From assembly GCA_963771175.1 (NCBI GenBank), contig CAVYSY010000036.1:62385-126384 (forward strand): a DNA stretch of 64,000 bases, given 5' to 3'. The notes under the pieces were generated by a model. That model saw only the letters and a program-made list of their open reading frames with translations, searched no databases and was not told the origin of the DNA. The first letter of the stretch is position 1, and each line of letters opens with the position of its first letter. The translations under genes were made by a program, and so were the position numbers. Below are positions 12,453 to 24,484 of the stretch, piece after piece. Source of the stretch: an uncultured delta proteobacterium (GTDB lineage: Bacteria; Myxococcota; Myxococcia; Myxococcales; Myxococcaceae).

Positions 12453-12602
12453 TGCAAAGGCAAGCCCTTTCTTCTGGCCTACCCGGGGCAGCGCCCAGTG
12501 TGTCAGCCAGACAACAAAACATGGAAGTCAAGTCTTTCTCGTTCCACGGGTTGCTGGCCATATCGCGCTGGAGTCCCCCCCACAATCCGACGGAGAAGAT
12601 CG

Positions 12603-14174
12603 ATGTCCTGGCTGCGTGTCATTGCCCTATCGGCCATGGTCCTGGCGCTGAGCCTCGGTACCACCCCCGCATCCGCCTCATCCTTCCGCCTCGCCAACAT
12701 CATGGTGCGCGATGGAGTGGTGCTGGATGCGAATGTCTTTACCCCCGACACGCCGGGGCCGCACCCTGCGATCATCTTCATCACCAGTTGGGCGTTGCCC
12801 AACATCGAGTACCTCGTGCAGGCCCAGCAGTTCGCCGACGCCGGGTACGTCGTGCTCTCGTACACCCCCCGCGGCTTCTACACCTCGGGCGGTTACATCG
12901 AGACGGCTGGGCCCAAGGACGTCAGCGATGTGAGCGACATCATCGACTGGCTGCTCACCAACACCTCCGCGGATCCGGCGCGCATCGGCGCGGCGGGCAT
13001 CTCGTATGGCTCGGGGATCAGCCTGCTCGGCTCCGCGTTCGACTCGCGCATCCGTGCCGTGGCCGCCGTGAGCACGTGGACCGACCTCCAGTACTCGCTG
13101 CTCGCGAACCAGACCCGCCACCAGCAGGCCGCCGGGCTGCTGAAGCTCTCCGGCGTGCTGACGGGGCGGCCCTCGGCGGAGCTGCAGCAGATTCTCTCGG
13201 ACTACTTCGACAACCGGAACCTCGCGGGGATCAGCGCCTTCGCCCAGGTGCGCAGCGCCGCGACGTACCTCGACCGCATCAACGCGAACCGCCCCGCGAT
13301 CCTCATCGCGAACGCCTATGGCGACAGCCTGTTCGCGCCCAATCAGCTCTCCGACTTCTACACCCGGCTGACGGGGCCCAAGCGGCTCGAGCTGCGCCCG
13401 GGAGATCACGCCATCCCGGAGCTGACCGGCGTCCTCGGTCTGCCCAATGACGCATGGACCAGCGTGCACCGCTGGTTCGACTACTACCTGCGTGGCGTGA
13501 ACACCGGCATCGCCGCGGAGAAGCCGGTCCAGCTCCAGGTACGTGGCCAGAGTGGCTACGAGGCCTATTCGTCGTGGAGTGAAATCTCGACGAGCACCGC
13601 GCGCTACAACCTGGGCGAGGTGAACTGGTGGAACGGCGAGGGCGAGCTCGTGTCGAGCGCGCAGACCGGCTGGAGCCGGACGGTCTTCGCGGGCGACGAC
13701 ACCGTCGCCAACGGAGGCATCGTGATGCTGACGAACGGCGCCGAGGCGCTCACGGGTGAGCCGCCGATCGCGTGGATTCCCGCGGTGGACCGGGACAACG
13801 CGGGCGTCTGGCAGTCGGGCTCGCTGACGAGTGCGCGCCGTCTGCGTGGGGCCGCGCACCTGCGCCTGACGGTGACTCCGGGCAGCTCCGGGCAGACGAC
13901 GATCATCGCCTACCTCTACGACACGGACGCGCTCGGGACCGGGCACCTGGTGACGCATGTGGCCTACACGATCCGGGGCGCGGTGGCCGGCCAGGCCTAC
14001 ACCGTGGACACCGACTTCCCGGCCACGGTCTACGACGTGCCGAGCGGGAACCGGCTCTCGCTCGTCGTCGACACCGTCGACCCGCTCTACGCCGACCAGG
14101 GAGCGCTGTTCACCTCGGTGAAGTTCTCCTCGCCGGGGACCAATCCGTCCTACGTGTCGCTGCCGCTCAAGTAA
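12603..14174 (+). CDS. Secreted CocE/NonD (peptidase S15-like) alpha/beta hydrolase
   Basis: Signal peptide MSWLRVIALSAMVLAL..ASA, MVRDGVVLDANVF, nucleophile motif GISYG, C-terminal jelly-roll domain. Confidence 0.85.
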   Translation: MSWLRVIALSAMVLALSLGTTPASASSFRLANIMVRDGVVLDANVFTPDTPGPHPAIIFITSWALPNIEYLVQAQQFADAGYVVLSYTPRGFYTSGGYIETAGPKDVSDVSDIIDWLLTNTSADPARIGAAGISYGSGISLLGSAFDSRIRAVAAVSTWTDLQYSLLANQTRHQQAAGLLKLSGVLTGRPSAELQQILSDYFDNRNLAGISAFAQVRSAATYLDRINANRPAILIANAYGDSLFAPNQLSDFYTRLTGPKRLELRPGDHAIPELTGVLGLPNDAWTSVHRWFDYYLRGVNTGIAAEKPVQLQVRGQSGYEAYSSWSEISTSTARYNLGEVNWWNGEGELVSSAQTGWSRTVFAGDDTVANGGIVMLTNGAEALTGEPPIAWIPAVDRDNAGVWQSGSLTSARRLRGAAHLRLTVTPGSSGQTTIIAYLYDTDALGTGHLVTHVAYTIRGAVAGQAYTVDTDFPATVYDVPSGNRLSLVVDTVDPLYADQGALFTSVKFSSPGTNPSYVSLPLK

Positions 14175-14227: not shown

Positions 14228-16394
14228 TCAGGGATGCGCGATGACGATGAGCGTTGACGCCCGAGCTTCGACGCACGTCATCACCTTGCGCATGGTCACG
14301 GGGTCCAGCGCACCGAACGCCTCGTCGAGCACCACGACACTGGCCCGCTGCAGCAGCGCCCGGGCCACGAAGACACGGCTCTGCTCCCCATGCGAGAGCT
14401 GCCACCCGCTCTCCCCGACCAGTTGCATCAATCCCGAGGGCATCCGGGCCAGCAGCTCCCCCAGCCCCAGCTCCTCACAGAGCGCTCGGGCGTTTTGCAG
14501 ATCCTCCTGCGAGGGAGGCCAGGCGCGGCCCAACAGCAGGTTCATGGCCAGCGTGCCGGACACCACGTGGTTCTCGTGGAACTGAGGAGCACTGGCGATC
14601 TGCGCGCCCCACCCGTGCGACGTCCAGGTCGCCATGTCCAGGCCTCCCAGCAACAACAGCCCCGAGCCCTGGCCCCTCAACCCCGTCAGGATGGAGGCGA
14701 ACGTCGACTTGCCCGAGCCAGAGGGCCCCTCGAGCAGCACGCGCTCTCCCGAGCGAACCACCAGAGAGGCCCGCTCGAGCACCGCCCGTGGCGCCCCCGC
14801 GTGCTTGAAGACCAGATCGCGCACCTCGAGCAGGGCCTGGGCCTTCGGGGGCGCCGCGCCTGGGGAGAGAGGAGAGGCGCGGGTCACCCTGCCCTTCTCG
14901 CTCTCACGGGCCGCCTCTCCCGAGGCGTTGGAGCGCTTCGCGGCATCCAGGATGGGACGCACGCTGTGAAACAACACGCGCGCGCCGCTGAGGGCCAGGG
15001 CTCCGGTGGTCAGCGCCGCCAGCGCGCGCGTCGCCATGAGCGCGGCCCCCACTCCCACGGCGATCCTCGCGGTCGAGGCTCCCGCGAGCACGCCTGGGAG
15101 CGTCGCGAGGATCGCCACCGGGAGGAGTCCCCGCCTGGAGAGCGCCACCACCCGCGCCGTCGCCGCGTCCCACTGCTCGGAGGCCTCGGCATAGTGGGCC
15201 AGCTCATGGTCCTCCTCCTCGTGCCAGCGCGCCGGCAGCTCCTGCGCGAGCCGCGTCCGGTGGCCGAGCATCCGCTCGATGAGCGCATGCGTCATGACGA
15301 CCCGCGCCTCCGTCCACCTGCGGAAGCGTGAGCGACTGGCGCGCGATCAGCACCGCCAGCAAGCAGCAGAAGCCCCCCAGCACCAGCAGCCCGAGCCAGC
15401 CCGCGGGGCCGGTCACCATCACGCTCGCCGCCAGCACCAGATCGATCGCCGCCAGGAGGCTGGTGAAGCTGCCCACCAGCGCCATCTGCTCCATCCCCGC
15501 GCTCTCGAAAGTCCTCCCGACGTACTCGCCAATTCCACCGCGGCGCGCCTCGTCCACGGGCAGCGCGAGCGCCCCCGCCAGCAGGTCGCCTGCGCAGCAG
15601 CGCGGAGAGGTCCATCGCCAGGGACCCCTGCGACCAGGCCAGCGCCGCCTGGAGCGGCACCATCGTCAACCCCATGAGGGCCCAGGCCCAGAGCCACCCA
15701 TGGTCGAGCTGCCCATTGAACGCGCCCCGTCCAATCAACCACCAACCGGCGAGCAGGCACACCTGGACGACCACCGCCAGCAGCAAGAGCAGGACCAGCC
15801 GCCGTCCGGCCCGCAGCGACCGCAGGTGATGGACCAGACGGGCTCCAGGTGGCAGCCGGAGCGTGCGCGCGGCGATGAGGTGGGTATTGGCGAGCTGGGC
15901 TCCCAGCAACGCCCGCCGGGCCAGGGTCCGCTGGGGTGCCGGCAGTCCCGCTCGCTCCAGGACGCGATCGGCCACGGGCCCCTGTTGCGCCCTCGACGAT
16001 CGCCTGCACGGCGGCGGTCAGCAGGGAGAAGGGAACCTCGTGCGGCGTCTCATCCGGGGCGATGAGGTCCGCGGCTCTCCCCCGAGGGGGACACGCGAAG
16101 CAGTGCGAGCACCCTACGCCCCTGGGTGCTCGGCACATCCACGAGGGCCGGGGCCGCGCGGCCCAGGGCACGTTCCACTTCGCCGTGGCGCGTGTAGAGC
16201 AACTCCAACTCGAGCCCCAGCGCATGGGCCGAGGCGTCCAGCCACGCCCCCACGCGGCTCGGGTCCTCGGGTACCGCGCGCGAGAGGACCGGGAGCGGAT
16301 TGGGGAGCGGCAACCGCGCCGCACGCGCCAGCGCCTCCAGGGCTTCGCCCGCTCGCGCGAACGGCCAGGACACTGCGTCCAGCTCACCCGACAT
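14228..16394 (-). CDS. ABC transporter (fused TMD+ATPase), second subunit; split by about 4 indels
   Basis: Start MSGELDAVSWP overlaps the end of the upstream transporter. TM segments lie in ORFs 15292..15975 and 15204..15557. Walker A GPSGSGKS, signature LSHGE and LDE lie in 14228..15295. Confidence 0.8.
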
Positions 16395-19090
16395 GAGCCA
16401 CCCCCTCCTCCTCCTCCTCGTGTCGCTCGGAGAGCACGCCCTGCTCCAGGACCAGCCGCCTCCACCCCTCCCGCCTGGACAGCTCCCCCCGCATCGACGC
16501 CTCCTCATCCAGCAGTGCGCGGTAGTGGGAGTCCTCGCACGCCGCGAGCGCCTGGGGAGCCCCGTCCTCGACCAGCCTCCCGTCCTTGATGACCAGGACG
16601 CGGTCGAACGAGAGCGTCTCGGCGATGTCATGCATGATGCAGAGCAGCGTGGTCCCCTCGAATCCCTGTCGTGCCCGCTCCAACAGCGCCGTGCGACGGT
16701 CTCGCTCGAGTCCCCGGAACGGCTCGTCGAAGATGGCCAGCCGCACCCCTGGCCGGAGCAACGCCCGGCCCAGGCGCACCCGCTGCCCCTCACCGCCCGA
16801 CAACAGACTGCCCCCCTCGCCCAGCCGGGTCTCGAGCCCCTGGGGCAGCTTGTCGAGCAACTCGATGAGGTCGGCCCTGTGCAGCACCTGGCCCACCCGG
16901 GGCAGCACCTCGGCCTCGTCGGCGCCATAGGCGAGGTTGTCCACCAGGGACTTGTTCCAGAGCGTCACCTCGGGCTCCAACCACGCCGTCTCCCGCCTCA
17001 GCCGCCACAGGGCCGCCCCCTCCAGCGGCTCGCCATCCACCTCGACGCGGCCCGCGGCCGCCGGTGCCAGCCCAGGAGGACTGCCCACCAGTGACGATTT
17101 CCCAGCGCCCGAGGGGCCCACGATGGCGACGTGCTCCCCGGGTTGAACCGAGACATCAATCCCTTGCAGGAGGGTGTGGCCCCCGGCCTTCACCTCCACC
17201 TGACGCAGCGAGAACCCAACCCCCCGAGCCCCTTCCACCGGTCGCTCCGTCTGTCCTGGGGTGGCCAGCGCGACGCTCGTGGACACCTCGTCCGGAGCGA
17301 GCAGTGGCTCCATCAATCGGCCAGTGAACGACGAGGCGGCGGGGTACTGGCGCAACGCCTCGGCGATCTGCTTGCCCAGCGTCGGCACGGCGAGCGCCCA
17401 GTAGACGAGCAGCAGGACAGCCCCGGGTTGTACCCCCTTCGAGAGGGCGTGCAGGACAATGACAACCGAGCCCCCGGTGGCGGCGAGGGAGGCGAGCGTG
17501 TCCGCCGTGGTGCTGCGGCGCAGCAACGTGCGGGCCGCGGAGATGAACTCGTGCAGCGGCTCCTCATGAGCCCGGCGGAGCGTCAGCTCGGCATGGTGCG
17601 CCCGCAGCGCCACGGCCCCGCGCAAGGCGTCGAGGTAGAAGCGCGAGAGCACCCCGTCGAAGTCCCGCATCCGGCGATCGGCTTCGAGCAACGAGCGCTG
17701 CGCGACGAGGGGGATGCCGAGCGCCAGCCCACCCGCCAGGAAGATCAAGGGGGCGCTTCGCGGAGCCAACCACGTCAGCCCCACGAGCGTCACGAACAGC
17801 TCGGCGGCGGCGCGCAGCACCAGGGCCGCGAGGTTGGGCACGTTGCGCACCATGTGGATGCCATGGCAGCGCTGGGCCATGTCCGAGATGAGCCGGCTGC
17901 GGAAATAGCTGTCACCCAGGCGTGGGATTTTGTCGAGGAACGCGAGCCGGAGGCGGAGTTCCAACCGCCGTCCCAGGCGGAGCGTCCCGAGAGAGAGAGG
18001 CAGCTCGATCGCGAACAGCACGCCCATCAGGACGAGCAGCGTCACGACGCCGGCGATCCGCTGTTCGGTGGTCGTGAGATAACGACCCGCGTCGATGACC
18101 CCGCGCAGGAGCAGCGCCTCCAGGAAGCCGCCCACCGCCGCGGTCACCCCCATGGCGGCGAGCACCCTCGGCGTGAGCACCCCGTCCCGGCGCATCAAGG
18201 CCACGAGCTCACGCAGGGGGCGGGTGGGCGCCTCCTTCAAGACGGCCTCGAGCCCCGGAGACAGCGGGGGTTCATCCTCCCCGTGCTCGCCGCGCAGCCC
18301 CTTCGCCCGGATGCAGACGACGCCGCGCAAGGTGATCTCCTCGGCGTCCGGCCCTCCCACCGCCGTCCAATAGGCGGGGGGAATGAGCTCCTCGGCGCGA
18401 CCCTCGTCCAGGGCCGTGCGCACCTCGAGCAGGAGCTGCTCGACGAACGCCGCCGCCGTCTCGCCAGGCTGGAGGCCGTCACCCTCCACGAGCGTCTGCA
18501 CCAACCGCACCGTCGCATCCAGGCAGGCCAGGCCCTTCCAGGTGGAATCCCCGAGCGCCTCGGCGACGAGTCGCTCCGACAACGGCCCCTCGACGAGCTC
18601 GGACAGCCTGCGACGCAGACCCACGAGGAACTCCTCCGTGCCGGCCCACTCCCGGAACCCCTCGGCGGACACGGGCATCGCGTGCACGAAGCACCGGTCG
18701 AGCAGCTCGGCGGCGGACACCCACCGCCGCCCCAGCGCCGGATCCATGATCTGGACGCGGTTGCCCCACTTCTTCCAGAGCACCACGAAGTGCAGGTTGC
18801 CGTCCGCGAGCCTCACCACCACGATGGCCGGCAGCGCCCCGGTCTCCTCGAGGAGCAGGTGATCGCGCGGGAGCATGCCCTGCTCCGCATCCAGCCCGAG
18901 GCTGACGGCCAGCTCCTCGAGCACATCCATGGACGTGCCGTCGACGTCGGTCTGGCAGAGCTCTCGGAGCCGTCCATAGCTGACCGGCACGCCGGAAGCC
19001 GCCGAGCAGGGCCTTGAGGGCCGCCGGACCGCAGTCCATGGCCGACGTCTGGATGACTTCTGGAACGAAAAGACGTGGTGCACCCGCCAT
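16384..19090 (-). CDS. Peptidase C39-containing ABC transporter (PCAT); frameshift near 18995
   Basis: MAGAPRLFVPEVIQTSAMDCGPAAL (catalytic Q..C), HFVVL (His), MDPA (Asp), then TMD, Walker A GPSGAGKS, LSGGE and FDE. Confidence 0.88.
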
Positions 19091-19093
19091 GGC

Positions 19094-20290
19094 TCAGCTC
19101 CCCCCCTTCGGCGACTCCGTCCCGCCCTCTACCCGCAGGACCCTGGGTTGCTCCCGTGCCGGACGGTCGAGCCCCCGACCCAAGGTGCGAAGCACGAGCT
19201 GCGACGGCGTGGCCTTCCCCACCGCGACGTCCACGAGGCCAGGCAACCCATGCTCGAGCGGAATGCCCGGCGGCAGCTCATCCACCGAGAGCTCGACTCG
19301 CACCAGGCCATCGCGAGGCTCACTCGCCACCGCCACCACCGTGGCCTCCAGCATCCCGAACTCCGCCCAGGAGAAGCCCTCCAACCGCATGCGAGCCCGC
19401 TGACCCTCGCGGATACGCCCCAGGGCCTCCGGGGAGAACTGCGCGACGACGCGCACGGGTCCACCGGCGACGATGGTCGCGATGGGGTCACCGGCCTTGA
19501 GCTGCGCGCCCACGCGTACGGAGCTCGTCTCGCCGAGGACGCCATCCGCCGGCGCTCGAATGATACGGCGCTCCAGCTCCTCGCGCAGGCGCTCCACGTT
19601 GGCGCGCGCGACGCTCTCGTCCGACTCGAGCCGGGCAATCTCTCCCTGCAGCGCGGCGAGGCGGGTGCGCCGATCGGTGGACTGAATGCCACCTTCCGCT
19701 CTCACCCGCGCCAGCGTGGCCCGCGCGGCCTGCTCCGCGGCCAGGGACCGCTCCAGCTCCGTATGGGACCTGCTCCACTCCATCTCGCTCAACACGCCCC
19801 GCTTCCAGAGCCGCTCGGTGGTGGACTCCTCCTCCTTGGCCCGCCGCGCGACCGCCTCGGCATCGATGAGCCGGGCCCGCGCCTCCTCCACGCCCGCGAT
19901 CCCCTGCCCTTTTTGCTCCACCAGGCCATGCTGCTCGGCCTCGAGCTCCGCGCGCGCCGCCTCGAGCTGAGGCCCCAGTCCTTGAAGCACGGCCTCCGCC
20001 TCCGCTACCCGGCGCTCCTCCTGCACATGCTCCAGCTCGACGAGCACATCTCCCGCATGCACGGGGCGGTGAAGCTCCACCTGCGTCTTCACCACCCGTC
20101 CCGCCACGGGTGCATCAATGGCGTACACCTCGCCATGGAGCTCCAGACGCGCCTGCGCGCTGCGCTCGTAGACGATGATGCGCGCCTGGAGGAACCAGCC
20201 CCCCCAGATCGCGAGCAGCCCCACCGGTATCAGCCAGAGCGCCGGCCGCCCGCGCCCGCGCACCAGGGCGCGCCAGGTGCGTGGAAACAT
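19094..20290 (-). CDS. HlyD-family membrane fusion (secretion adaptor) protein
   Basis: N-terminal TM, IDAPVAGRV and IRAPADGV lipoyl-like halves, long alpha-helical hairpin. Start codon uncertain. Confidence 0.88.
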   Translation of the reverse strand: MFPRTWRALVRGRGRPALWLIPVGLLAIWGGWFLQARIIVYERSAQARLELHGEVYAIDAPVAGRVVKTQVELHRPVHAGDVLVELEHVQEERRVAEAEAVLQGLGPQLEAARAELEAEQHGLVEQKGQGIAGVEEARARLIDAEAVARRAKEEESTTERLWKRGVLSEMEWSRSHTELERSLAAEQAARATLARVRAEGGIQSTDRRTRLAALQGEIARLESDESVARANVERLREELERRIIRAPADGVLGETSSVRVGAQLKAGDPIATIVAGGPVRVVAQFSPEALGRIREGQRARMRLEGFSWAEFGMLEATVVAVASEPRDGLVRVELSVDELPPGIPLEHGLPGLVDVAVGKATPSQLVLRTLGRGLDRPAREQPRVLRVEGGTESPKGGS

Positions 20291-20456
20291 GCCTTCGACC
20301 TTCAAGTGGCTGGCCAAATCGCCCCCCGTCTCGACCGTGCCGTCCTGCGGATGGAGGGGGCCCGTTGGCTTTGTCAGGGAGAGTGACGCTCCGAGGGAGC
20401 GGCCTGCTCGTCCTCCAGGCAGGCGTCTCGCCCAGGCATTCCGGAGGTGCCTCGCG

Positions 20457-20489
20457 TCACAAGAACCACCCCCCTGCTCAGACCGTACG
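20457..20489 (+). promoter_or_regulatory. Conserved upstream motif, copy 1 (TCACAAG-N11-TGCTCA-N2-CCGTACG)
   Basis: Near-identical arrangement at 22646..22679. Both copies end 27-30 nt before an ATG. Confidence 0.5.
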
Positions 20490-20516
20490 CGAATCACACC
20501 TGTCTGGAGCTCTCGC

Positions 20517-22328
20517 ATGAGTCAGAACGCTGTATCGGTTGATCCCCACGAGACGCTGTACCTGCCCCTGCGGCGTCGCTTCATGAGCGAGTACGTGACC
20601 ACGCCCGAGGGCACCCGGGAGCTGCGCATCTTCTACGGCCTCAAGGAGATCACGATCGATGAGCCGGACCTGCTCTCCTTCGGAGAGAACCTGCTCAAGC
20701 AGGACGAGTTCATGGCGGGCAGCGCCACCCTATGGAGCGAGGGTGAGCCCTACCCCTGGGAGCGCGTGAGGGAGCTGCTCGAGGCGCTGCTGGACGAGGA
20801 GATTCTCTCGCGCGAGGCCCCGAAGCCCGCGCCTTCGGAGAGTGACGTTCATCGAAGCTGGATGGAGGCCGAGGCCCGGCGGGTCGCGCCCACCGAGCCC
20901 CTGTGGTGGAACCCGGACTGTCCCCGGGTCATGGAGCGGTTGGTGGGGCGGCCGCTGGAGTTGGGCTTCCTCGAAGCGGTGATTCCGGTGCATCGCGTCG
21001 CCCACCCGGCGCTCGACGCGGAGGGGCGCCATATCGGGGAGAGCAACGTCTTCCCCGACGCCATGCGAATGAAGCTTCCGACGGATTGGCGACCGTGCCC
21101 CTACCCGGGCAGCCGCTATCGGGACGAGGCGATGATGAACGTGACGGCGCTCAAGTCGATGACACGGCACTGGAAGTCCGTGTTGCAGGGGGTGCTCGCG
21201 GTGCGAGAGGAGTTCCTGCGCCACCATCCCCTGCTCCCGGACGGGCGCTGGCGGCTGGGGGATCTTCACGCCCTGTGCTGCGCCGTGCTGGCTCTACCAA
21301 CCCTGCGGTTGATGCGCGCGAACGCGCCCGTGCCCAATGGCGAGCTGGATCCCGTGCTCTCCTCCATGTTCCGGGTGACGGACGGCGTGCGGATGGTGAC
21401 GGCCTACATGCTCTTCCTCCCGGAGCTGCCGATGCCGTACGACACGCCCATGACGGCGGCCGAGCTGCTCCGCTTCACCGAGCAGGACAATCACTTCCTG
21501 TCGACGCGGGGCGTCTGCGCCGGTCCCCCGCACATGGTGGAGGAGTTCCTCGCGACGCTGATGGATGGCAAGCCCGTGGCGGGCGTGCCCAGGCCCGCGG
21601 AGGAGTGGGACGACGAAATCCCCACGGCGATGGATTACGGGATGCGGGGACTCCAGCTCTATTGCCTCCAGTTCAACCTGTGGAGCCACATGTGCCGCGC
21701 CTACGAGTCGATCCGCGCGGCGCTGCTCGACGTGGAGGATGAGCCGGGTGGAATCTGGAGCCGGATGCGCGCGCGTGTCGAACGCGATTGGGCGATGATC
21801 CTGCCCACGCGACTGCACACCTCCACCCAGCGAGATTGGGCAGAGGCCCGCTACATCGAGATGTTCGATCAGGCCCAGCGCGGCCTGAAGGGCTTCCGGG
21901 AGGACGCGCTGCTTCGCTTGCAGGACGTGTTCACCCCCGCGAGGGACGAAATGGATGGGAAGACCCGCCGGCAACTCCGACAGATGCTCCGCTCGCTCGC
22001 GGGCTCGCCCCCGGGGGCCCGGAGAGACGCCCTCGACACCATCGCGGACGCCGCGGCGGAGTTCCTGGCCCTCGAGCGCTCAACGCTTCGCGCCCTGGAA
22101 GGTGTTCAGCGCCAGGTCAATGCGTTGCTCCAGCGCCCCCATCCAGCGCGAAAGTTCTCCAGCGCGGATCTCTCGCTGCATCTCCGCCTGCGCCAGGGCA
22201 CCATCGGCGTGCTGCCCTACCTGCTGGATGTATTCCGGGATGAGCTGGGCATCGTCGTCGAGAATACGGAGGACGACACCCGCTGCGATCTGGTCAGCTC
22301 GCCCTACCAGCAGGTAGCCCAGATGTGA
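20517..22328 (+). CDS. Uncharacterised 603-aa protein, candidate RiPP maturase (possible N-terminal RRE/winged-helix)
   Basis: Clean ORF with typical codon bias directly upstream of three precursor genes. The N-terminal ~100 aa end in PWERVRELLEALLDEEIL (wHTH-like). Cys/His-containing segments: HRVAHP, WRPCPYPGSRY, MNVTALKSM, GVCAGPPHM. The ORF is well supported; the function is inferred. Confidence 0.7.
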   Translation: MSQNAVSVDPHETLYLPLRRRFMSEYVTTPEGTRELRIFYGLKEITIDEPDLLSFGENLLKQDEFMAGSATLWSEGEPYPWERVRELLEALLDEEILSREAPKPAPSESDVHRSWMEAEARRVAPTEPLWWNPDCPRVMERLVGRPLELGFLEAVIPVHRVAHPALDAEGRHIGESNVFPDAMRMKLPTDWRPCPYPGSRYRDEAMMNVTALKSMTRHWKSVLQGVLAVREEFLRHHPLLPDGRWRLGDLHALCCAVLALPTLRLMRANAPVPNGELDPVLSSMFRVTDGVRMVTAYMLFLPELPMPYDTPMTAAELLRFTEQDNHFLSTRGVCAGPPHMVEEFLATLMDGKPVAGVPRPAEEWDDEIPTAMDYGMRGLQLYCLQFNLWSHMCRAYESIRAALLDVEDEPGGIWSRMRARVERDWAMILPTRLHTSTQRDWAEARYIEMFDQAQRGLKGFREDALLRLQDVFTPARDEMDGKTRRQLRQMLRSLAGSPPGARRDALDTIADAAAEFLALERSTLRALEGVQRQVNALLQRPHPARKFSSADLSLHLRLRQGTIGVLPYLLDVFRDELGIVVENTEDDTRCDLVSSPYQQVAQM

Positions 22329-22402
22329 TTCGAATGAGAATCACAAGGAGTTCGTCCCTCGCTCCTCCTGTGTGAGGTGTCTCAGAAAGGAGGAGTAAAC
22401 AC

Positions 22403-22513
22403 ATGAAGATCAAGACGAAGATTCGGGGTGGTGCGCGCACGTGCTTCGGTGGCATCTTCGGACCCATCGTCGTTCGCCCCCCAGTCCTCCGACCGCCCAT
22501 CTCCCTCGCGTAG
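22403..22513 (+). CDS. Double-glycine precursor peptide 1: MKIKTKIRGG-ARTCFGGIFGPIVVRPPVLRPPISLA (36 aa)
   Basis: Strong SD (AGGAGGAG) upstream; leader nearly identical to precursors 2 and 3. Confidence 0.85.
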   Translation: MKIKTKIRGGARTCFGGIFGPIVVRPPVLRPPISLA

Positions 22514-22547
22514 AAGAATCCAGGGAGAAGGATCCGCGTTTGATTCA

Positions 22548-22583
22548 AGTCGCCAGTGGGCGGAGCATCGCCTGCTGGCGACT
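22548..22583 (+). terminator. GC hairpin after precursor 1 (no clear U-tract)
   Basis: AGTCGCCAGTGGGCG-GAGCAT-CGCCTGCTGGCGACT; near copy of 22919..22954. Confidence 0.55.
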
Positions 22584-22645
22584 GTGTCTTGCGGGGTACG
22601 GCTCGTCGTCCCACACGGGCCTTTTGAAAACAACTCAGACAAAAA

Positions 22646-22679
22646 TCACAAGCGCCACGCCCCATGCTCAATCCGTACG
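22646..22679 (+). promoter_or_regulatory. Conserved upstream motif, copy 2 (TCACAAG-N12-TGCTCA-N2-CCGTACG)
   Basis: Matches 20457..20489; lies in an AT-richer gap 30 nt before the ATG of precursor 2. Confidence 0.5.
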
Positions 22680-22709
22680 TAGCGCGTAGCGCTCAGGAGG
22701 AGCAAACAC

Positions 22710-22778
22710 ATGAAGGTCAAGACCAAGGTTCGTGGTGGTGCTCGGATGTGCAGCGGCGGCAGCGGCACTTTCTTCTAG
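22710..22778 (+). CDS. Double-glycine precursor peptide 2: MKVKTKVRGG-ARMCSGGSGTFF (22 aa)
   Basis: CTCAGGAGGAGCAAACAC-ATG ribosome-binding context; synonymous differences relative to precursor 3. Confidence 0.85.
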   Translation: MKVKTKVRGGARMCSGGSGTFF

Positions 22779-22828
22779 CCGCAGAAGTACCCGATGGATT
22801 CGCACTCTCACTCAGGAGGAGCAAACAC

Positions 22829-22894
22829 ATGAAGATCAAGACCAAGATTCGGGGCGGAGCTCGCTCGTGTAGCGGCGGCGGCACCTTCTTCTAG
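22829..22894 (+). CDS. Double-glycine precursor peptide 3: MKIKTKIRGG-ARSCSGGGTFF (21 aa)
   Basis: Identical CTCAGGAGGAGCAAACAC-ATG context; tandem paralog of precursor 2. Confidence 0.85.
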   Translation: MKIKTKIRGGARSCSGGGTFF

Positions 22895-22918
22895 CAGCAG
22901 AAGTACCCGTTGAATTCC

Positions 22919-22960
22919 AGTCGCCAGTGGGCGGAACATCGCCCGCTGGCGACTCTTTTT
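22919..22960 (+). terminator. Intrinsic terminator after precursor 3
   Basis: AGTCGCCAGTGGGCG-GAACAT-CGCCCGCTGGCGACT followed by CTTTTT. Confidence 0.75.
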
Positions 22961-22981
22961 CGTGGGAGGGTCTGGAGGGGA

Positions 22982-24484
22982 CTACCCGGCGGCGGCGGGA
23001 GAGACAGGGCGCTGCACCTGTACGCCGGGCAGCATGGGCGCCGGGTTGAGCGACAGGATGAGCAGGCTGCGCAGGGCCTCCTTGAGGTCCTCTCCCACGC
23101 TGGCCGCCCCCGCCGGTGCGCCCTGCAGCTCCGCCGGCACCGGGTGGCCCACCACCACCACCGGAATGCGGACGTCCCACGCCAGGAAGTACGCCAGCTT
23201 CACCGCCGCCTCCGACGTGTCGAACAGCAGCGCCCCCGCGGCTCCCGAGCTGAACGGCCGCCACAGCGGCCTCGCCGCCTCCGCCGGAGGCAGCACGCAG
23301 AAGTCCAGGTGCAGCAGCTCGTGCAGAGCCATCCGCCCCAGCGTCCCGAAGCCGCTCTTCACCGCGGGGGGCTCGGCCGCCACGGCCGCGATGTCCGGCA
23401 TCTGCGACAGCAGCCGGCGCGCCACCGCCGGACCACTGCCGCACACGAAGATCTTCGCGGTGGCCTCGCGCGAGGCGCCCTTGCCCCGCAGGATGCGTCC
23501 GCGCAGCGCGTGCAGCTCGGCGGGCCCCATCAGCGGGCCGCTGTGCCCCTCCTCCGTCTCCCCCTCGGCTACGCGGGCCACGCCCTTCTGGAGGAGCGTG
23601 TGCAGCACGCCCACCACCTCCAGGTCCGTGGCCGGCGCCAGGTCCAACACCTCGCCCACCGCCCGGGGCTGGCGCAACAGCTCCACCACCTGCGCCGTCA
23701 CCGGGTGCTGGTCCTGCGTCAGGTCCGCGTCCGGCGCGAGCACCAGCCGGGCGTTGCGCGGCGGCAGCCCCGGCAGCAGCCGGTTCACCTCGTCCGCCTG
23801 GCGCATCGCCTCCAGCAGCGAGTCGTCCATCCCGCGCTGGATGCGCGGCTTTCCCCCGCTGCCTCCCGGCGCGAAGGTGAACGAGCCCTCGGCCCACACC
23901 AGCAGCCGGAAGAGGGCCTTCTCTCCCTCGGCCCGGCCCACGCGCGCGTTCGCCGGGCGGCCCTCCACCACCGATATCTCTCCGCGCTCGTTGCCCCGCT
24001 CCAGCGTCAGCTTCCCGCTGCGCTTGTTCATCCCCAGAATCTGCATCAGGTCCGGGATGCTGAGCTGGCTGAGCGAGCCTTCGATCTCCTGCACATCGCT
24101 CTTGAGGTCCTTCGCCGCCTCGTTGCGGCGGAAGACGTGCTCGATGCGGGAGAGCACCTCGTCGATGTTGAAGGGCTTGCGCAGGTAGCCCTCACGCAGG
24201 CCACGGGCCTTGTCCGCCTCGAACCTGCCGGTGGAGACCAGCACCGGGATGTCATCCGTGCGCGGGTTGGTGCGCAGGATGTTGATGAAGGTGCGCGCGT
24301 CCAGCAGATGGCACGCCTCATCGAAGAGGATGAGCTCCGGGTGGCGCAGCACGGCCACCTCCAGGGCCCGCGAGCCATCCGGCGCGTAGTGCACCTGGTA
24401 GCCCTTGGTGCGCAACGCACGGGAGAGCGGGCGGACCGACTCGAGATCGGGGTCGGCGATGAGGATCTTTCGAACCTGGGCCAC
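22982..24484 (-). CDS. Atypical response regulator: receiver + DUF4388 + degenerate small-GTPase-like C-terminal domain
   Basis: KILIADPD...LILFD...YLRKPF receiver. IEGSLSQLSIPDLMQILGMNKRSGKL is typical of DUF4388. C-terminal KIFVCG...LWRPFSSGAAGALL. Confidence 0.8.
   Translation of the reverse strand: MAQVRKILIADPDLESVRPLSRALRTKGYQVHYAPDGSRALEVAVLRHPELILFDEACHLLDARTFINILRTNPRTDDIPVLVSTGRFEADKARGLREGYLRKPFNIDEVLSRIEHVFRRNEAAKDLKSDVQEIEGSLSQLSIPDLMQILGMNKRSGKLTLERGNERGEISVVEGRPANARVGRAEGEKALFRLLVWAEGSFTFAPGGSGGKPRIQRGMDDSLLEAMRQADEVNRLLPGLPPRNARLVLAPDADLTQDQHPVTAQVVELLRQPRAVGEVLDLAPATDLEVVGVLHTLLQKGVARVAEGETEEGHSGPLMGPAELHALRGRILRGKGASREATAKIFVCGSGPAVARRLLSQMPDIAAVAAEPPAVKSGFGTLGRMALHELLHLDFCVLPPAEAARPLWRPFSSGAAGALLFDTSEAAVKLAYFLAWDVRIPVVVVGHPVPAELQGAPAGAASVGEDLKEALRSLLILSLNPAPMLPGVQVQRPVSPAAAG

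Follow-up and report, generated by a model that had tools for sequence, protein, structure and literature searches.

Tandem short-leader peptide genes beside a conserved 603-residue protein: candidate precursors of an uncharacterised RiPP-like system in Myxococcota and other bacteria

The question raised by the locus

Do three very small open reading frames (ORFs), each beginning with the same basic stretch of ten residues that closes in Gly-Gly, encode peptides that are modified and exported, and if so, by which proteins? The question is raised by a 64-kb stretch of DNA from an uncultured member of the Myxococcaceae (contig CAVYSY010000036.1 of assembly GCA_963771175.1; the whole stretch is hereafter the window), in which the three ORFs stand beside a gene for a 603-residue protein, here called X603. 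The original prediction, made from the letters of the DNA, held that the ORFs are double-glycine precursor genes whose leaders are removed by a C39 peptidase. The answer to which the analysis leads, and to which a probability of roughly 60% is attached, is that they are translated precursors in a widespread, uncharacterised system resembling those that yield ribosomally synthesised peptides with post-translational modifications (RiPPs), in which the leader would dock on X603, the core would be modified at an Arg-Cys motif, and C39 cleavage would accompany export. On gene order, the core of the system is a set of 1–11 tandem precursor genes, an adjoining X603 gene and, often, an exporter trio made up of an HlyD adaptor, an ATP-binding cassette (ABC) transporter with a C39 peptidase domain (C39-ABC) and a second ABC transporter (ABC2).

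A peptide family with a ten-residue leader

The three ORFs lie on the forward strand where the original prediction had placed them, with the translations that it gave (MKIKTKIRGGARTCFGGIFGPIVVRPPVLRPPISLA, MKVKTKVRGGARMCSGGSGTFF and MKIKTKIRGGARSCSGGGTFF for peptides 1, 2 and 3, respectively; coordinates in Table 1). The sequence GGAGGAG(T/C)AAACAC directly precedes the ATG of all three, the Shine–Dalgarno (SD) element GGAGGAG standing 7 nt 5′ of gene 1. The gene copies constitute a 93-nt direct-repeat family of 67–78% identity, and a codon-by-codon reading bears out the remark that their leaders differ only by synonymous changes (ACG/ACC, CGG/CGT, GGT/GGC/GGA) or by exchanges of Ile and Val. 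A six-frame search of the whole window with the leader expression returned three matches, which are exactly these genes. In addition to Gly9-Gly10, each peptide has a second Gly-Gly at residues 16–17 (C-x-G-G), and the Cys of cores 1, 2 and 3 is followed by 22, 8 and 7 residues. NCBIfam gave no match for the three peptides at E ≤ 0.01, nor for peptide 1 together with seven homologues at E ≤ 10.

Table 1. Coordinates of the features of the locus within the window
Feature	Position	Strand	Description
X603 (P0001)	20517..22328	+	603 aa; directly upstream of the peptide genes, same strand; without Pfam or NCBIfam match
Peptide gene 1	22403..22513	+	36 aa; leader MKIKTKIRGG and 26-aa core; one Cys in R-T-C context; RPP-repeat tail
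Peptide gene 2	22710..22778	+	22 aa; leader MKVKTKVRGG and core ARMCSGGSGTFF
Peptide gene 3	22829..22894	+	21 aa; leader MKIKTKIRGG and core ARSCSGGGTFF
Stem-loop 3′ of peptide gene 1	22548..22584	+	37 nt; without T-run; RNA fold −32.1 kcal/mol, z −3.7
Terminator-like hairpin 3′ of peptide gene 3	22919..22963	+	16 pairs, then T-run; −34.1 kcal/mol, z −5.2
HlyD-family membrane-fusion protein	19094..20518	-	divergent from X603
C39-peptidase ABC transporter	16384..19090	-	+1 frameshift at about 18988–19000, as assembled
Second ABC transporter (ABC2)	14228..16440 (end approximate)	-	no peptidase domain; at least three reading frames against homologues of 736–762 aa
CocE/NonD (S15) family hydrolase	12498..14174	+	beside the exporter genes; in 0 of 76 related loci

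When one genome per species was scanned with an alignment of X603 (A1), 76 loci came back, labelled as 47 Myxococcota, 14 Gamma-, 10 Beta- and two Alphaproteobacteria, and one each of Pseudomonadota, Planctomycetota and Acidobacteria. At 69 of these loci small ORFs that bear the leader and have a ribosome-binding site adjoin the X603 homologue on the same strand; with a looser regular expression the figure is 72, the three additional loci (L008, L053 and L054) having slightly variant leaders. Because the leader recurs in this way beside X603 homologues, chance is excluded for the window ORFs, and the prediction that they are genuine, conserved precursor-type genes holds. The four loci without a leader ORF comprise two with less than 120 nt of downstream sequence available (L058, L061) and two in which none was seen (L003, L037). 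The family numbers 153 ORFs, of which 145 are unique; a profile search with the peptides returned 679 small database proteins at E ≤ 0.01, all unnamed save one evident mis-annotation, the dominant type being the proteobacterial MK[IV]K[TS]N[IV]RAG...VYVPPVSRC[VA]G[ILV]. The gene family itself, its linkage to X603 and the conservation of its leader and Cys are established by these loci.

Two of the loci (L053 and L054) come from metagenome-assembled genomes labelled Planctomycetota and Ectothiorhodospiraceae and agree wholly or almost wholly in coordinates and identities across X603, the exporter genes and the peptide; on this comparison the Planctomycetota record seems doubtful, one sequence apparently having been binned under two phyla.

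Across the unique peptides the leader follows the ten-residue pattern MK[IV]K[TS]x[IVL]R[GAS]G and carries a net charge of +2 to +4, so that its description as unusually short and basic is borne out. By position, with counts among the 145, it begins with Met1 and continues with Lys2 (135), Ile3 (111) or Val3 (33), Lys4 (131), Thr5 (126) or Ser5 (19), Lys6 (81), Asn6 (37) or Arg6 (14), Val7 (86), Ile7 (49) or Leu7 (9), Arg8 (118), His8 (14) or Lys8 (7), Ala9 (70), Gly9 (64) or Ser9 (11), and Gly10 (144). The codons of Gly10 among the 153 ORFs are GGC in 76, GGT in 69, GGA in 6 and GGG in one. The leader residues are kept while their codons vary synonymously, and selection therefore acts on the peptide. 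Codons 7, 8 and 10 frequently end in T across the loci (GTT/ATT, CGT, GGT), even at 70% G+C, which may point to a constraint on the nucleotides themselves, for instance a need to keep the translation start unstructured.

Beyond the leader the cores are 5–47 aa long and, apart from one feature, unalignable. That feature is the Cys, of which 133 of the 145 peptides have exactly one and 140 at least one, and an Arg stands no more than two residues from a Cys in 133 peptides. The core start AR-x-C-x-GG, which had been called invariant, is so among the three window copies; family-wide, what persists is the single Cys with Arg within ±2, and the second Gly-Gly is unconserved, as in tails such as ...RRGCPI, ...GRCGA, ...PPVSRCVGI and ...MLCAR. 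In other words, the window motif is, on sequence comparison, a local version of a family signature R-x(0-1)-C. The distance from the Cys to the C-terminus ranges from 0 to 37 residues, and in 60 of the 140 Cys-bearing peptides it is 0–3. The proposal that Arg2 and Cys4 of the core are the site of modification survives in part, in that nothing in the core is conserved except a Cys that has an Arg close by; the fixed position that it assumed does not.

The leader ORFs that have no Cys (for example L002:7697-7850, L052:7706-7819, L065:7625-7729 and L066:6941-7042) all sit upstream of X603, and His, Gly and Asp abound in some of them; they could represent either decayed copies or a second type of peptide.

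X603, the candidate maturase

The minimal cassette is X603 with the precursors, usually together with the three-gene exporter, and X603 is the only candidate maturase. A word-indexed protein search returned 390 relatives, every one of which bears a source name of 'hypothetical' or 'uncharacterized', and among 1.84 billion cluster representatives its profile has 1040 matches at E ≤ 1e-3 (673 at ≤ 1e-10 and 183 at ≤ 1e-30). X603 is a soluble cytoplasmic protein, as no hydrophobic segment is present in it (its 19-residue hydropathy peaks at 1.44) and its net charge is −19. The AlphaFold model built from A1 (pLDDT 86.8, pTM 0.84) consists of an N-terminal winged helix and then a large helical domain. 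In the ESM Atlas, the whole protein gave weak leads only (0.83), to winged-helix clusters, and residues 100–545 gave none. The fumarase/lyase-family and transporter entries at the top of the Foldseek matches of the whole model were set aside, their TM-scores (≤ 0.13) not being meaningful.

Modelled alone, the N-terminal 105 residues (pLDDT 87.9) form a winged helix, whose elements within residues 13–93 run in the order strands 13–15, 22–28, 34–40 and 43–47, helix 50–59, strand 64–66 and helices 67–72 and 81–93, and the fold class of this domain is thereby established. Among its top 50 matches in the PDB are proteins of RiPP pathways that bear a RiPP recognition element (RRE), namely McbB, LynD, TruD, PqqD, PbtF, ThcOx, TbtB and TglHI. 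McbB, of the microcin B17 synthetase, scores E 0.049 at a probability of 0.96, LynD has a probability of 0.90 and a query-normalised TM-score (TMq) of 0.54, and PqqD and the isolated PbtF RRE reach target-normalised scores (TMt) of 0.55 and 0.53. In this domain 38 of 38 homologues have a net charge of −4 to −13, whereas that of the leader is +2 to +4. A recognition-element-like domain of the kind that had been invoked as the binding partner of the leader is thus present, and the acidic winged helix of X603 is predicted to bind the basic leader, which may, as had been proposed, dock as a β-strand. A complex prediction of X603 (A1) with peptide 1 (A2) gave a score of 0.14 against a mark of 0.32 and weighs neither way on binding.

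The helical part is where conservation is concentrated. Among 161 full-length members, 29–87% identical to the window protein, 52 columns are at least 95% identical; these cluster in residues 153–337 and include H163, D167, R171, E175, N177, C194, R200, N208, R286, D289, R292 and C334, the last within a GVCAGP loop. The least confident parts of the model are the two loops that hold the invariant Cys residues (197–202 and 327–333), and their low confidence resembles that often seen in flexible active-site loops. Rare homologues carry, as a fusion partner, a DUF7059/MTS methyltransferase at the C-terminus (P0182, P0198, P0209) or a GNAT acetyltransferase at the N-terminus (P0190); such fusions are compatible with a biosynthetic role for the X603 family.

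The exporter genes and their state

The link to a C39-peptidase ABC transporter that had been drawn for the window is upheld by the related loci. Searches by tblastn with the window proteins found C39-ABC and HlyD each in 35 of the 76 loci and ABC2 in 34; where the full 8-kb flanks are available (43 loci), the respective numbers are 22, 23 and 25. In relatives the C39-ABC begins MAG.PRL.IPEV.QTSAMDCGPAALK...GFGVPVSYGRLRE, and the Gln/Cys motif in this N-terminal stretch is presumably the C39 active site; intact relatives keep this motif together with a His (in HFVV) and an Asp (in MDPA), both of which align to PCAT1. The true start of the window HlyD gene probably lies at a lower coordinate than that of the ORF in Table 1, judging from the alignments of relatives, which begin only at residue 43–78.

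In the window the ORF 16384–19083 matches Pfam Peptidase_C39 (E 4.4e-13) and ABC_tran, the former match starting only at profile position 28 because of the frameshift. The Gln/Cys motif (VIQTSAMDCGPAAL; ATG at 19090) is out of frame with the remainder of the gene, and no C39 domain intact in one frame is found within 16384–19090; in four relatives (L001, L007, L010 and L012) the gene reads through in a single frame. Single frames are kept by X603, by HlyD and by those regulator and housekeeping genes that were checked, the breaks being concentrated in the two ABC genes. With both of these broken as assembled, export would call for a transporter whose gene lies elsewhere; otherwise the locus is undergoing decay. 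The frame of ABC2 changes near 15320–15330, 15587–15595 and 15981–16080, and its breaks could reflect a pseudogene or an assembly error; the GC3 phase plot was too noisy to judge the quality of the assembly.

A proposed route from precursor to product

In the reading favoured here, the three ORFs would first be translated as precursors, for which it is their conservation that speaks. The basic ten-residue leader would then dock on the acidic, RRE-like winged helix of X603, such that the helical domain could modify the core at or beside the single Arg-flanked Cys. The chemistry of this step is a guess, namely that it is thiol-directed and possibly metal-assisted, for which the invariant His, Asp and Glu and the two Cys would be suited. 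By analogy with peptidase-containing ABC transporters (PCATs), the C39 domain would cut after Gly10 and the two ABC proteins would export the product together with HlyD. In some lineages a periplasmic MauG-like di-haem enzyme may tailor the product afterwards.

A bolder form of this proposal is tentative and rather doubtful as a whole: X603 would represent a new RiPP class, with a maturase unlike any solved fold, the shortest known Gly-Gly leader, an acidic recognition domain and an undescribed thiol-centred reaction at the Arg-Cys motif, possibly a metal-assisted S-alkylation, an S-lipidation or an Arg-Cys cross-link. If it were true, the '...PPVSRCVGI' subgroup would be a bacterial counterpart of CaaX processing, and Myxococcota, methanotrophs, Burkholderiales and others would make the products as secreted signals, metal binders or antibiotics.

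Objections and alternative explanations

Several observations weigh against the favoured reading, and they concern each of its steps. With regard to the leader, a review of leader proteases (PMC10885120) describes recognition by LahT of hydrophobic residues at −4, −7 and −12, which lie on the amphipathic helix of canonical Gly-Gly leaders, and the inability of LahT150 to remove leaders without them. Unlike canonical leaders, those described here have Lys at −7 in 131 of 145 peptides and no position −12, and their variable residue stands at −2 and not at −1, the form being [G/A/S]-G (Gly 64, Ala 70, Ser 11) where G-[G/A/S] is usual. The window peptides do have Gly at −2 followed by Gly, Ala or Ser at −1, in the form of G9-G10, and a C39-peptidase ABC transporter is encoded nearby; the hydrophobic set of −4, −7 and −12 is not found. 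The claim of a Gly-Gly leader for C39 cleavage accordingly stands as regards the hydrophobic −4 and not as regards the −7 and −12 residues that known C39 domains use, and the frameshift of the window C39-ABC counts against it as well.

With regard to X603, no enzymatic fold or family is assigned to it by Pfam, NCBIfam, PADLOC or the PDB. Foldseek of the whole model against the PDB found nothing below E 0.001 (best E 0.17), a PDB sequence search with the A1 profile gave only low-complexity, apolipoprotein-type helical matches, across 22 family members the lowest Pfam E was 0.1, with nothing consistent at E ≤ 1, and a PADLOC scan gave no match. The best Foldseek matches of the N-terminal domain are moreover the winged helices of the ribosomal oxygenases NO66 and MINA53 (E 7e-4, TMq 0.61), those to RRE proteins being weaker (E 0.05–0.5). 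As for modification and export, five of the 145 leader-bearing peptides are without a Cys; the window C39-ABC has a one-base insertion within 18988–19000, after codon 31; ABC2 aligns to three full-length homologues (736–762 aa) only as pieces in three frames; and at 16 of the 43 full-flank loci a transporter gene is missing from the 8-kb flanks.

The state of the ABC genes is the basis of the alternative that survives best, unlikely as it is, according to which the window locus is a decaying remnant with intact precursors and X603, a dead exporter of its own and no mature peptide exported from the locus. The frameshift of C39-ABC, set against the single frame of the four relatives, and the fragmentation of ABC2, set against its full-length homologues, are what such decay would leave behind, and the other large window ORFs scanned include no second peptidase ABC transporter. 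However, nothing is broken in X603, in the three peptide genes with their SD sites or in the terminator, the breaks may be indel errors of the assembly, and the 16 loci elsewhere that have no transporter nearby suggest that export in trans is normal in multi-copy genomes. These sixteen are all from Myxococcota, several of them from assemblies that gave more than one locus, and given such 'orphan' pairs, export by a transporter encoded elsewhere appears to be common.

It is also unlikely, in our assessment, that the peptides are secreted unmodified, as class II bacteriocins, microcins and pheromones are, with X603 serving as a leader-binding chaperone, an immunity factor or an RRNPP-like cytoplasmic receptor or regulator. 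Such a role would fit a protein with no recognisable catalytic fold, and the RRNPP-like variant, which supposes an N-terminal helix-turn-helix and a helical peptide-binding domain, would fit the order of a winged helix and a long helical domain; the peptide genes directly adjoin X603, as in receptor–pheromone pairs, and genes for histidine kinases and sigma-54 activators recur, each at about nine of 77 loci (the 76 and the window). Yet the near-invariant columns of X603, among them His, Asp, Glu and two Cys within residues 153–337, are enzyme-like, and their conservation corresponds to the constant Arg-Cys motif; a receptor would instead have to follow the hypervariable cores. The acidity of the winged helix makes it unsuited to DNA binding, and some family members carry the fused methyltransferase or GNAT domains, which are tailoring domains.

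Cleavage at the second Gly-Gly would give a 17-residue leader, nearer to the usual length, with AR-x-C inside it and products of GTFF, SGTFF and, from peptide 1, a 19-mer. All three window peptides have this second Gly-Gly, but most family members do not, and where the Cys stands 0–3 residues from the C-terminus it must belong to the product; such cleavage is very improbable. That the ORFs are untranslated, the repeats being regulatory RNA or chance ORFs of a GC-rich genome, is scarcely credible, for although a window of 70% G+C contains many spurious ORFs, the amino acids are conserved with synonymous codon variation across several phyla, the conservation is confined to the peptide frame, the ORFs found have a ribosome-binding site ahead of their leader ATG, and a scan of 21800–23300 against Rfam gave no match at E ≤ 1.

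Comparison with known systems

Precursors that are modified by X603 and exported by a C39 transporter would have most in common with double-glycine/PCAT systems (LahT, ComA, PCAT1), in which the N-terminal leader likewise has a terminal Gly-Gly and, at −4, a hydrophobic residue (Ile, Val, Leu or Met in 145 of 145 peptides here) and in which a C39-peptidase ABC transporter and an HlyD-type adaptor are encoded alongside. As described for LahT (PMC10885120), several precursors share one leader type and have diverse cores. Unlike canonical leaders, those of the present family have only ten residues and are basic, not acidic or helical, and unlike PCAT systems the locus has two ABC genes rather than one.

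RRE-dependent maturases (LynD/TruD, McbB, TbtB, PbtF, TglI) similarly place a β3–α3 winged helix at the N-terminus, before what in X603 is a putative catalytic domain, and have precursor genes adjacent. The resemblance differs from that among such enzymes in the weakness of the fold matches, and the putative catalytic part of X603 matches no RiPP enzyme or PDB fold.

In the RaxX/RaxST/RaxB-RaxA system of Xanthomonas, whose peptide RaxX is sulfated, RaxST is the single tailoring enzyme and RaxA the membrane-fusion protein. Unlike X603, RaxST is a recognisable sulfotransferase that acts on Tyr, where the conserved candidate target here is Arg-Cys. RaxX itself, according to a preprint (bioRxiv 10.1101/442517), is a peptide of a Gram-negative organism that is processed and secreted by a peptidase-containing transporter. 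The NHLP/Nif11 export sets (TIGR03794, TIGR03796, TIGR03797) also comprise an HlyD adaptor, an ABC protein with a peptidase domain and one without; in contrast, the window export proteins match these NCBIfam models far below their cut-offs (138.7 vs 853.3, 126.9 vs 709.4 and 34.6 vs 156.2 bits, respectively), and the precursors lack a leader domain of the NHLP or Nif11 type.

The yeast a-factor is a CaaX peptide and offers a functional analogy. The largest subgroup of the present family ends in ...PPVSRC[V/A]G[I/L/V], with the Cys four residues from the C-terminus, ABC export would be common to both, and some X603 proteins are methyltransferase fusions; unlike CaaX systems, X603 has no prenyltransferase or isoprenoid-synthase match, and the window Cys lies near the N-terminus of the core. 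The CaaX analogy is pure speculation.

In staphylococcal-type thiolactone autoinducing peptides (AIPs) of agr systems the Cys stands five residues from the C-terminus, and a membrane protease of AgrB type is present. The likeness of the window cores to such thiolactones, which had been suggested as a speculation, was rejected: the distance from Cys to C-terminus is fixed neither in the window nor in the family, and no AgrB-type or membrane-protease family is found among the conserved neighbours. DAG-RiPPs (PMC13056109) combine a signal peptide, a hydrophobic region and a lipobox Cys with an MNIO (DUF692) enzyme. A lipobox or DAG-RiPP reading was likewise set aside, the peptides having 10 basic residues before the Gly-Gly, no hydrophobic region and an Arg at −1 or −2 of the Cys. 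The cluster proteins scanned gave no DUF692 match.

Novelty and implications

A search of the full-text literature, with supplementary files and about 1.7 million PMC articles outside its scope, found nothing on the leader, the X603 family or the strings PPVSRC, KTNVRAG, KTKVRGG and KTKIRGG, and 'MKIKT' gave only matches to the MalE signal peptide. Pfam, NCBIfam, PADLOC and Rfam hold no model for the peptides or for X603. The family probably constitutes a RiPP class of its own, whose maturase is novel and whose ten-residue Gly-Gly leader is atypical.

If this is correct, an unrecognised family of ribosomal peptide natural products is at hand, of some size, in that its maturases fall into roughly a thousand sequence clusters (50% identity) and close to 700 small precursor-like proteins already stand in the databases, all as hypothetical. 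There would be an enzyme without a known fold to study, with new cysteine chemistry to find, and a leader that breaks the rules by which PCAT substrates are predicted; the leader motif together with X603 would provide a handle for genome mining, and the peptides a natural test case for the recognition of a basic ten-residue leader by C39 peptidases. The carriers include cultured, tractable organisms, namely Archangium, Myxococcus, Steroidobacter gossypii and Methyloglobulus morosus.

Neighbouring genes and minor features

An all-against-all clustering of ORFs across the loci found no other broadly shared family, with two exceptions, of which the kinase and sigma-54 genes already mentioned are one. 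The other is a di-haem protein of the MauG/cytochrome-c-peroxidase type with a RoxA-like domain, whose gene adjoins X603 in 15 of the 76 loci (L002, L013–L015, L020, L035, L036, L040, L042, L044, L045, L051, L057, L068 and L071) and is missing from the window. Its N-terminus is lipoprotein-like (for example L013:6102-7787), and in some subfamilies it could act as a tailoring enzyme of the periplasm; MauG-like enzymes are also found in methanobactin operons, according to one account (PMC3621798).

The S15 hydrolase beside the exporter genes is probably outside the system, and it was rejected as a part of it together with a TPR protein, a DUF4388 response regulator and a GGDEF regulator, these four being found in 0, 0, 2 and 4 of the 76 loci, respectively. 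Downstream of the cluster, on the opposite strand, are genes for the DUF4388 response regulator, a response-regulator/GAF/GGDEF protein and DapF, and farther out in the window are housekeeping genes (for example those for ClpB, DnaB, PRPP synthetase and L25) and a TonB receptor.

The hairpin after peptide gene 3 resembles an intrinsic terminator and ends the X603–peptide operon; its stem-loop (22919–22954) is nearly identical to the one after gene 1, with a T-run in addition, and the latter is probably a partial terminator or an mRNA stabiliser. Finally, the 9-mer AATCACAAG occurs in unusually A/T-rich DNA at 22339–22347 and 22644–22652, that is, 64 nt 5′ of the start codon of peptide gene 1 and 66 nt 5′ of that of peptide gene 2, and may be a promoter or a regulator site.

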